From sequence record KJ909655.1: DNA of 61,137 nucleotides, one strand, 5' to 3'. The position numbers were made by a program. Positions 21,001-24,000 of this stretch are shown piece by piece. This stretch comes from Escherichia Stx1-converting recombinant phage HUN/2013. How positions within the stretch are numbered: position 1 is the first letter of the stretch; every line of letters begins with the position of its first letter.

Positions 21001-24000
21001 AGCAATCTGTTCAAACTGCGTGTGTGGCAACTTGTAAGTTTGGCTTACGAGTTCGGCTTCCAGTTCTGCTATGCGCTTCTCTGATGCTTCAAGTAACGCC
21101 TGCTTATCGCGTAGCGCTTCTTCCAGTTCAGCAACATGGCATTCACTATCAATAAGGTTGTTCTCTGCTGCTCCCAGCTCAACTCTCAGCTTCCCAACCG
21201 TAAGCGCAATCTCCTCGTTCTCCTGGTCGCGGCGTTTGATGTATTGCTGGTTTCTTTCCCGTTCATCCAGCAGTTCCAGCACGGTAGCCGGGTTAGCCTC
21301 TGCTATGAATTCAGCGTTGCATAAGCCTGAGCATCTGTTTCAACCAGGCAGTTAACATGACATTCTGCAATCACGCCACCGGGTTCTCCTTTCCATTTTT
21401 GGCAAACAAAAACTCCTGTTAAATTGCCGTGCTGGTTAACAGATGTATGCCCTACGATGTAGCTTCCTTTAGTTGCTTTCTCTGCCTTTTCACGCAGTGC
21501 CTGATAGTCAATCTTGCTCATTTTTCTCTTCACTCCGGTATACAAGGATTACTACGCCCCCTCTGCTAATTGCGCGAGCTGGATCCCCTGGTTCCATGCC
21601 GTCAATACCGAAGGCTTCGAAAAATGCATCTATTGCCTTTTGGCGTTGCTCCTGCTTACGGCGTTTATTCCATTTTTTCATGAACAACAGTGACAGCCAT
21701 CGTCCGCTGCAGAACATGATGTAGAAATAACCAAGGAGCGCTAGGCCGGTGTTCAGGGCTGTATCGATCGTTATCGTGGTGTTGATGTTCACTTCACACC
21801 TCTCTGTTTGTTGATAAGTTCAATATCCTGCTGGCAACTGGCGCAAGCTCTGCATCCACGAACAGCCAGGCGTCGCCGCTCATCTATCGGATCGCCACAC
21901 TCGCAACAATGAGTAGCAGATGGGGCATTACTATCGGATTTGTATTTTTGCAGGGAGAGATTGCGCTGCAATTCTTCGATTTCAGCGGCGTTGTCGATGA
22001 TATCTGCCATTTTCCTTTCCTTCAGGCATGAAAAAAGGAGCCGAAGCTCCTTTGGTTTTAGAATTCGAATTGCCTTGCCCGCAGGCTTTTCAGCATTGGT
22101 CTGGCCCGCTGAACTACGAAACTCGACTGGTCAAGCCGTGCCGCCTCTCTCAGTAGCACATCTCTGTTCTTCGTCACCATGTAGATGGTCTCAAACGCAA
22201 TGTCATACAGCTTGTTCGTGTATGAGGAGTTCAGCTCTTTCATGATCGGATACAGGTGTTTGCTGAGGTCCTGGGCTTTTTCCATCCAGAGTTGCATGTA
22301 GCAGAGGAGGATGATTTCCTCGTCTGTGAATTGTTGCTGTGGTTCTGCTTGTGCCGACTGCATGTTGCGAAGTTTCTTTTCGCACTCGATGAAGTATCTG
22401 CGTATCTGTCGGCCTTTTTCGTTACGCTCTACCATCGCCGTTTCTTTGGCTGTATCGAGGGTAAGGTGGTAGTCTTTTTTCCCTCGCCCATAACCTATTT
22501 CCCGTTTCTGGGAAATAGCTATATAGTCCTGATTTTCAACGAATCCGTACTCTTCAATACGTTCTGTAATCCACGATGCAAAGCGTTTACCTACTCCAAG
22601 AAAAGTATGTAAATCACGGGCATTAACGAGAAGAGTGGTTTCGTTGGCGATAGTGCCGTTGAATACGGGGATGAGTTGACTGGTCATGATGACCTCCTTA
22701 TTTGTTTAGTTTATAACCGCCAGTTAGTAGCTGGCGGTCGGGTGTCAACTGAGCCAAATAAGAAGCTCTGGGCATATTCCCCTTGCGGGTGTTGTATTAC
22801 GCCTCTCCACCCGACCTTTGTACGGATGTAACTATGCCAAATTGCAGGCATAAAAAAGCCGCAAAGCTATCGGGTGCGGAGACCGCTTATTTGTTCAGTG
22901 CGGTCAGTATGCGATAGCTCTGGAGGATTTGTCAATCAGCGGAATATTGATGAACGGGTAACGGTAAATGCCTCATCCAGAAAATTAACGCAAATTCGCA
23001 TCGCAAACTTGCGTTAATTATCTGAAATATCAAGTTAAATCCCCTTAAATGTTTGGGGCACTATTGGGGCAAAATGTGGTTGTTTGGGGCATATTTGGGG
23101 CAAAAAAGAACGTATAAAGAACGGTGTAAAATTGATTTCTTCATGGTCAAAATGAGGTGTAACAGATTGAAAAATATATGCTCTTGGACGATCTTCGGTA
23201 ATTCTGTGTTTTTAATGCTTCATGGTTTCAACATGTCTAAGGATATGGTTTATCATTTTGAAAAATATAATTTTATTTCATCCTCCTGGTCACTTTGGGG
23301 CACGTCTGGGGCACGGGCATTAAGGACATTATTCAACATGGCAACTTGAGTCACGCTGCACTCAGGCATCCATGCACCATAAACATTGTAGACCATGCTG
23401 GCGCTGGAGTGCCCCATCTGTGATGCAATAAATGTCGGGTTTGCTCCGGAAGATAAAGCCCAGCACGCATAGGTATGGCGTGACTGATACGCTTTACGGG
23501 ATCGGATACCCGCTCTTTTTATTGCTGAATCCCATGTCGCTCCGATGGAGCTTACCGCGTAGTTAATACCCGCCTTGTGATTCTTGCGAACGATTTGCGG
23601 ACAGAAAACAAAAGTGCACTCGTGCAAAATTGTTCTTCCGTACTCGCGTAATTGAACAGTGATCTGATGCTGCCTGCTAAGACGAGTAAGCATCGCCTGG
23701 TTTTTAAGTGCTTCAATTGCTGGTGCCAGAAGATGTATAACCCGGTTAGTGCCTGCGTCGGTCTTTGGTAGCGTAAAATCACCTATTTTTGTAAAATTTC
23801 GTCGCACTGTTATCGTGCCAGCTTTCAGGTCGATATCCTCCCATGCAAGTGCGGCAATTTCACCGTGTCGCATCCCTGTAAAAACAGCCACTGTCCAGAG
23901 GTTTTTGGTCTGTTGATGATGGCAGGCATCAATGAGACGGCTAAACTCATCTCTGGTCAGTGGATCCGGCACTGGTTTTGATTTCCTCAGCGGTGTTATT

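Follow-up and report, generated by a model that had tools for sequence, protein, structure and literature searches.

TGGGGCA repeats as likely integrase arm-type sites in the wrbA-directed attachment site of a 933W-family Stx phage

Beside the integrase gene int of Escherichia Stx1-converting recombinant phage HUN/2013 (KJ909655.1; 61,137 nucleotides, analysed over its whole length and referred to below as the window), copies of the heptamer TGGGGCA are crowded together in AT-rich DNA, and the question raised by this locus is whether they are the arm-type sites of the integrase (Int) in the phage attachment site (attP), and if so where the core of that site lies and what part a nearby inverted repeat plays. 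An original prediction, made from the sequence alone, had proposed just such arm-type sites extending into the 3' end of int, had offered the inverted repeat as a possible core or integration host factor (IHF) site, and had held that the crossover sequence and the host target could not be identified without a host genome. We can conclude that the region is indeed attP, as supported by an alignment of lysogen junctions, and that TGGGGCA is, on strong comparative evidence, very probably the arm-type site of this integrase family; a lambda-type attP with a core and flanking arm sites is, as a whole, an explanation in which we place considerable confidence. The setting is otherwise a familiar one. 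The stretches 22600-24700 and 1-25000 are 100% identical to the Stx1 converting phage NC_004913 and to Stx2 II and 99.8-100% identical to phages of the 933W family, and the opposite end of the window is matched by Stx2 phages, likewise of the 933W family. Judged by these matches, the window is a known Traversvirus, a Shiga toxin (Stx) phage of the 933W family with an intact attP.

The core follows from the comparison of lysogen junctions that the original prediction had itself proposed. The attP of the window was aligned with the left and right prophage junctions (attL and attR) of one lysogen, VT2-Sakai, and with the bacterial attachment site (attB) in K-12 wrbA. In this alignment the two positions at which phage and host differ, 23224 (G/C) and 23232 (C/T), sort to opposite sides of GTTTCAA, and strand exchange is therefore placed inside this heptamer, at 23225-23231, which is within the interval 22900-23320 where the core had been expected. 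Two junction sets bound the crossover to the same seven positions, and among 217 E. coli genomes the matches to the region break at the core, those on the attR side covering 22950-23237 and those on the attL side 23221-23449. The crossover with the host thus takes place in GTTTCAA, and the host target is wrbA. A short overlap that is identical in attP and attB and holds the strand exchange is what is found in lambda-type systems. The wider core at 23221-23237 (CATgGTTTCAAcATGTC), which reads CAT-GTTTCAA-ATGTC, is the same in attP and attB at 15 of its 17 positions; attP carries one CATG on each side of the overlap and attB has CATC and TATG, and symmetry past these 4 bp is weak. Both the core and its host target, which had been considered out of reach, are in fact already in public records: NC_004913, AF125520 and AP000422 in GenBank annotate the identical 7 bp as attachment site or attL core, so attP, the wrbA target and the 7-bp core are known. 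The core is positioned between the left and right TGGGGCA clusters, and only 22 bp separate it from the int stop codon.

The clusters themselves are hardly a matter of chance. In the window as a whole TGGGGCA is not enriched (11 copies observed, 10.4 expected by chance); six copies on the plus strand fall within 260 bp, and these form three pairs whose members are exactly 11 bp apart. With about 0.023 copies expected, the Poisson probability of at least six same-strand copies per 260 bp is about 2e-13, or about 1e-10 when corrected for all such intervals. Their coordinates, first given as 23052-23102 and 23295-23314, were right to within 1-2 bases, and they stand in a region with a G+C content of 37%, as against 50% for the whole window. 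The left-hand cluster, in what we call the P arm, is made up of two tandem 31-bp units (23050-23080 and 23081-23111) with one 11-bp-spaced pair in each. The right-hand pair, in the P' arm, does lie inside the last codons of int as had been claimed: its copies are found at nucleotides 1275 and 1286 of the 1335 nucleotides of the gene, 47-58 nucleotides before the stop, where they encode the residues R-A-P and V-P-Q, the first being read in codon phase 3 and the second in phase 2.

The integrase is of a kind that would be expected to use such sites. It is annotated as an integrase in the records of 933W and the Stx1 phage, and it matches the Pfam families Phage_integrase (PF00589, E 2e-17) and, over residues 15-78, Arm-DNA-bind_2 (PF12167, E 6e-26), which means that it combines a catalytic tyrosine-recombinase domain with a separate N-terminal arm-binding domain in the manner of lambda-type integrases.

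The assignment of the motif to this domain is carried by a comparison of six attP sites with homologous integrases, namely those of the window, Salmonella Fels-1, the Rac prophage, PPyecE, Klebsiella RothC and Yersinia vB_YenM_30.14 (Table 1). Identity to the integrase of the window is 52-68% (tblastn) for PPyecE, RothC and the Yersinia phage, and the Fels-1 and Rac integrases can be aligned with it from end to end. Throughout the six systems the arm copies share one orientation and the members of a pair are spaced by 11 bp (10 bp in one Fels-1 pair), and this is so even though the cores differ among them and most of the DNA between the arm sites does not align. The P' pair lies within the int tail in five of the six, coding for (A/V)-P-x-x-P-(Q/H), with its two copies out of codon phase with each other. 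In Rac the integrase IntR ends earlier, and the P' pair stands downstream of the intR stop in non-coding DNA; since the copies are kept there without being translated, the constraint is on the DNA and not on the protein. The N-terminal domain is furthermore nearly identical in all six integrases, with the same motif alongside it, and no other repeated word conserved in both arms was found in the six sites. Repeated arm sequences that are unrelated to the core, occur on both arms and are conserved together with an integrase family are those of a lambda-type attP, and the notion that the TGGGGCA copies are Int arm-type sites is thereby supported.

Table 1. Coordinates of features in and around the attP of the window, and arm-site layout in the related systems; centres are given in bp from the core centre.
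Feature	Position	Strand	Remarks
P-arm cluster, four TGGGGCA (window, wrbA)	23054-60, 23065-71, 23085-91, 23096-102	+	centres -171, -160, -140, -129
P'-arm pair, TGGGGCA (window, wrbA)	23296-302, 23307-313	+	centres +71, +82; inside int codons 425-431
Overlap (crossover) GTTTCAA	23225-23231		7 bp, common to wrbA codons 15-17
Candidate IHF site TTTCAATCTGTTA	23160-23172	minus	12/13 match to WATCAANNNNTTR, centre -62
Conserved block GCTCTTGGACGATCTTCG	23180-23197		about -48 to -31, between P-arm sites and core
Hairpin	22978-23024	minus (int-sense)	23-bp stem with one U.U mismatch, 3-nt loop; 3' arm ends UUAAUUUUCUG
int	23253-24587	minus	444-aa open reading frame (1335 nt); tyrosine integrase with N-terminal arm-DNA-binding domain
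xis	24616-24915	minus	DUF1233 excisionase, Pfam PF06806, E 1e-30; upstream of int
Salmonella Fels-1 arm sites	P-arm centres -165, -154, -134, -124; P' centres +55, +66		
E. coli PPyecE (yecE) arm sites	P-arm centres -148, -137, -126; P' centres +69, +80		
K-12 Rac (ttcA) arm sites	P-arm centres -153, -134, -123; P' centres +64, +75		
Klebsiella RothC and Yersinia vB_YenM_30.14 arm sites			pair, gap of about 190-200 bp, second pair; compared by layout

Between the P-arm sites and the core two further elements may contribute to the site. The candidate IHF site is the sole match to the IHF consensus with at most one mismatch in 22940-23330, where 0.27 would be expected by chance, and the same scan, run on lambda as a control, recovers H1, H2 and H'. 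In Rac a like-oriented 12/13 match stands at -67, and at +22 the IHF consensus is matched perfectly; the window has one perfect IHF consensus in its whole length, far from attP. The conserved block, which in general form is GCTCYTGGACGATnTTyG, is shared by the window, Fels-1, PPyecE and RothC despite their differing cores and is absent from Rac and the Yersinia phage, and it may be the site of an accessory protein. The family of the excisionase (Xis) was considered as an explanation for the block and fails, as all four Xis proteins tested are of the DUF1233 type, the family found in the window, Fels-1, Rac (XisR) and RothC. We also note a 23-bp direct repeat, 83% identical and containing TTGAAAAATATA, whose copies at 23156-23178 and 23247-23269 (about -72 to -50 and +19 to +41) flank the core, the left one holding the IHF-like match and the right one spanning the int stop.

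Some points do speak against a lambda-type site with TGGGGCA as its arm word. The literature search found no binding or recombination experiment for this Int, and the arm assignment is one of sequence comparison; between the core and the P' sites there is no IHF match with at most one mismatch and hence no clear H'-type site; and XisR binds a Rac attR fragment in an electrophoretic mobility shift assay (PMC4632033), which leaves room for a role of Xis at some of the P-arm repeats.

The inverted repeat is outside the recombination site proper. Its perfect 9-bp arms, TTAACGCAA at 22985-22993 and TTGCGTTAA at 23009-23017, are present as first described, in DNA that is indeed AT-rich, and they form the centre of a longer repeat with 22-nucleotide arms (22978-22999 and 23003-23024) that are 86% complementary. 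As RNA this would fold into a hairpin, which is set 204-250 bp from the core (-250 to -204), opposite to int and past the outermost P-arm site. Its predicted folding energy is -27.3 kcal/mol on the minus strand and -18.1 kcal/mol on the plus strand, the minus-strand fold being about 9 kcal/mol more stable because two C.A mismatches turn into G.U pairs. It has a z-score of -5.0 and ranks as the eighth strongest of 40,726 windows of 50 nucleotides (both strands, 122 kb), although the local DNA is just 37% G+C. The sequence GCGUUAAUUUUCUG of the 3' arm has a U-rich run to which the A-rich 5' flank is complementary and with which it pairs. Directly downstream a sigma-70 promoter is predicted (TTGACA-18-CATACT, 22935-22906, minus strand), and to the left of attP Pfam identifies an AntA/AntB antirepressor gene, which starts at 22687 on the minus strand. 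Across five haplotypes 94% of the stem pairs are kept, one pair being changed on both sides (G-C to A-T) and one further position passing from U.U through U.G to C-G.

We are inclined, without great conviction, to regard this hairpin as a terminator or insulator for leftward transcription across attP. That it also acts like lambda sib, as a retroregulator, is a more tentative suggestion drawn from analogy, and one that we find rather doubtful. The analogy is in the first place one of position, since the lambda tI/sib hairpin, which in our folds of lambda falls at about -195 to -146, is likewise an int-sense hairpin just past the outermost P-arm site, so that integration parts it from int. It extends to structure as well, in that the hairpin of the window is stable in the int sense, is U-rich on its 3' side and can be extended by pairing of its A-rich and U-rich flanks, as would be expected of sib. 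The two stems are furthermore similar (CAGAnnATTARCGCAAG...TTGCGYTAATTTT), with a different loop and upper stem. In lambda, Guarneros, Court and co-workers reportedly established in the 1980s that RNase III cleaves the extended sib hairpin of read-through pL transcripts.

Several observations count against these functions of the hairpin as RNA. A simple terminator scan did not report it; its covariation is weak, being equalled in 98 of 500 shuffles of the five haplotypes; and in four of the five the minus strand has an A.C mismatch in place of one C-G pair. No conserved counterpart was found at the same place in Fels-1, RothC, PPyecE, Rac or the Yersinia phage, where the equivalent regions hold hairpins of mixed strand preference and, in RothC, coding DNA. 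BLAST of lambda sib against the window gives an E value of about 2, no better than unrelated matches, and when viral contigs were scanned for the stem pattern common to both, lambda-type and 933W-type classes came up, with no intermediates among the matches listed.

Some of the same data could be read to mean that the inverted repeat acts as double-stranded DNA, as an operator through which a dimeric regulator would control the neighbouring antirepressor operon, and not as an RNA hairpin. It is situated 45-90 bp upstream of the predicted promoter of that operon, the changes made on both sides of the stem preserve the dyad symmetry of the DNA just as well as RNA pairing, and one substitution weakens the minus-strand RNA stem. 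Operators are however usually much shorter than this near-perfect dyad of 47 bp with a centre of 3 nucleotides, only on the int-sense strand do the two C.A mismatches turn into G.U pairs, the 3' arm ends U-rich like a terminator, and lambda has a comparable hairpin in the same place with a known RNA function. We therefore consider an operator rather unlikely and prefer to see the repeat as a transcribed hairpin.

The region between hairpin and antirepressor gene holds one more element. A full-length match to the Rfam family sRNA-Xcc1 (RF02221) is found at 22728-22816 on the minus strand, scoring 69.1 bits against a gathering threshold of 53 (E about 1e-12), between the predicted promoter and the start of the antirepressor gene. 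This layout may be comparable to that of the c4 or IsrK-type RNAs which precede antirepressor genes in P1 and Gifsy-1.

As regards the TGGGGCA copies, the alternative that fares best holds that they are sites for the DUF1233 Xis or another accessory protein, the arm sites of Int being elsewhere or nonexistent. The Rac attR fragment shifted by XisR would hold the Rac P-arm repeats (PMC4632033), and it is common for directionality factors to recognise tandem direct repeats within a single arm. The motif is however present on both arms in all six systems, including the P' side that ends up in attL, whereas lambda-type Xis sites are restricted to the P arm. Int moreover has a dedicated arm-binding domain for which no other word conserved in both arms is on offer, and it is this nearly identical N-terminal domain that the six integrases share along with the motif. 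Xis sites in place of Int arm sites are accordingly an unlikely reading of the repeats.

It may also be asked whether the repeats have any function, since the left-hand cluster could be a tandem duplication, a variable minisatellite with a 31-bp unit, and the right-hand pair a coincidence driven by codons of int. The number of units does vary among near-identical relatives of 933W: there are two in the window, VT2-Sakai and phages related to the O104:H4 outbreak strain, three in 933W and Stx2 phage I, and four in Min27. The label that GenBank gives to 23050-23088, "arrangement g; region III", describes a repeat arrangement only. Codons do account for a seventh TGGGGCA at 23410-23416 on the minus strand, which was rejected as an arm site because it codes for a Q-M-G-H conserved in the catalytic domain and because four of the six systems lack it; it recurs at the same offset in Fels-1 int, the codons being the simplest explanation for this too. 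Against a functionless origin stands the conservation of motif, spacing, orientation and distances in the attP sites of Salmonella, Klebsiella and Yersinia elements whose flanks cannot be aligned, and codon usage is a poor reason for P' copies that are read in two different phases and that persist in Rac where the DNA is non-coding. Such an origin is in our view very improbable. The suggestion that the inverted repeat is itself the core or an IHF site, understandable for so conspicuous a dyad in AT-rich DNA beside arm repeats, is scarcely tenable at all, since the junctions place the crossover more than 200 bp to its right and so refute the first part, attR-side lysogen matches cross the repeat unbroken, and the only IHF match with at most one mismatch within 22940-23330 is the candidate site already described.

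Integration into wrbA also has a bearing on the host gene. The int stop codon overlaps an ATG (ATGA, 23253-23256) that in attP starts an open reading frame (ORF) of 14 codons (MINHILRHVETMKH, minus strand, 23221-23256), and in lysogens this ATG is fused in frame to wrbA, giving a hybrid of 192 aa (MINHILRHVETMARAV...) as compared with the native 198 aa; RefSeq annotates the hybrid at the VT2-Sakai attL as wrbA. The hybrid is without the first beta-strand and part of the flavin mononucleotide (FMN) loop of WrbA and is, judging from these missing parts, probably inactive. The plus-strand ORF 23053-23349, annotated as "ORF B44", which crosses the core and would be split by integration, was not taken as a gene. 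Six full-length matches to attP are present in the E. coli genome collection, and one of them is on NZ_CP044141.1 (E. coli O157 AR-0430), a non-chromosomal record of 50,155 bp, which suggests that this record is an excised circular phage genome assembled as a plasmid.

Taken together, we propose that the stretch from about 23050 to 23313 is the attP of a 933W-family Stx phage, built like that of lambda. Int would consist of a catalytic and core-binding part and of the N-terminal Arm-DNA-bind_2 domain, the latter binding the TGGGGCA words as the six-site comparison and the domain content of the protein suggest. Four of these words would serve in the P arm, in the two 31-bp units from -171 to -129, and two in the P' arm at +71 and +82, all of them paired one helical turn apart. 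Bending of the DNA between arm sites and core would let Int bridge both, and the candidate IHF site at -62, the conserved block at about -40 and the DUF1233 Xis may join in this bending. Because the int stop is so close to the core, the P' arm must lie in the int reading frame, where it encodes A-P-D-V-P-Q, and the C-terminal A/V-P-x-x-P-Q/H motif of these integrases would exist because the arm sites encode the tail. The hairpin, just ahead of the promoter of the antirepressor operon, would most likely terminate leftward transcription that crosses attP, the source of which would be int while the phage is a circle and the wrbA promoter once it is a prophage. The hairpin may in addition retroregulate int, as integration separates it from the gene in the same way as lambda sib.

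The practical value of these results is modest, given that for this phage family neither the attachment site nor its wrbA target nor the 7-bp core is new. They add a likely arm word, TGGGGCA in 11-bp-spaced pairs, for the whole 933W / Rac / Fels-1 group of Arm-DNA-bind_2 integrases, and this word could serve to mark the bounds of attP, attL and attR when prophages are annotated and to design minimal att substrates for this integrase. The hairpin and the variable number of units are furthermore leads on the control of Stx prophage excision and antirepressor expression. If the hairpin were a true counterpart of sib/tI, int expression would depend on the state of integration, and the c4-like RNA and the antirepressor operon would be shielded from transcription arriving through attP, including that from the wrbA promoter; if the number of 31-bp units, from two to four, tuned how efficiently the phage integrates and excises, it would thereby also tune how stable Stx prophages are. 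These two readings are possibilities which we would regard with some doubt.

Among known systems the closest are naturally the attP sites of 933W, VT2-Sakai, the Stx1 converting phage and Stx2 II, which are identical or nearly identical in sequence and have the same 7-bp wrbA site, int and xis annotated. In AF125520, AP000422 and NC_004913 the P-arm repeats figure as "arrangement g / gg; region III", and arm-type sites, P' sites and the hairpin are unannotated. The literature searched, with the primary genome papers Plunkett 1999 and Sato 2003 outside its scope, described neither arm sites of the 933W Int or Rac IntR nor the P' pair within int nor the hairpin. What seems to be previously undescribed is thus the arm-motif assignment alone, and the system appears to be an otherwise ordinary lambda-type attP.

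The likeness to lambda attP itself, which comprises P1, P2, C-O-C' and P'1-3 together with sites for IHF, Xis and Fis, is extensive. Both sites have a 7-bp overlap, which imperfect inverted core sites flank in lambda and may flank in the window, where the symmetry is weak past 4 bp; both have arm repeats that are unrelated to the core on either side, spanning -174 to +85 here and -138 to +79 in lambda, with tandem P' sites about one helical turn apart; and in both int is transcribed towards attP with xis upstream. The lambda sites, located as a control, are P1 at 27590 (+), P2 at 27620 (-) and P'1-3 at 27786, 27796 and 27807 (+), with the P' centres at +58, +68 and +79 and with P'3 overlapping the int stop codon at 27812-27814. 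The coding P' pair of the window can therefore be seen as a stronger form of the P'3 case, brought about by the short distance from the int stop to the core. The differences are that the arm motif is TGGGGCA and not AGTCACTAT, that the arm-binding domain belongs to another Pfam family, PF12167, that all arm sites point the same way, unlike the inverted P2 of lambda, that there are four P-arm sites in two pairs whose number is variable, that both P' sites are coding, that no clear H'-type IHF site is found, and that the target is inside a protein-coding gene. Rac, which has a homologous integrase, a DUF1233 excisionase and TGGGGCA-type sites on both arms, differs in its 26-bp core, in the degeneracy of several of its sites (AGGGGCA, GGGGGCA), in its non-coding P' pair and in the perfect IHF consensus on its P' side. 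It does however integrate into the 5' end of ttcA, to which the prophage supplies a new start and N-terminus (PMC4632033), and this replacement of the TtcA N-terminus parallels the hybrid WrbA of Stx lysogens.

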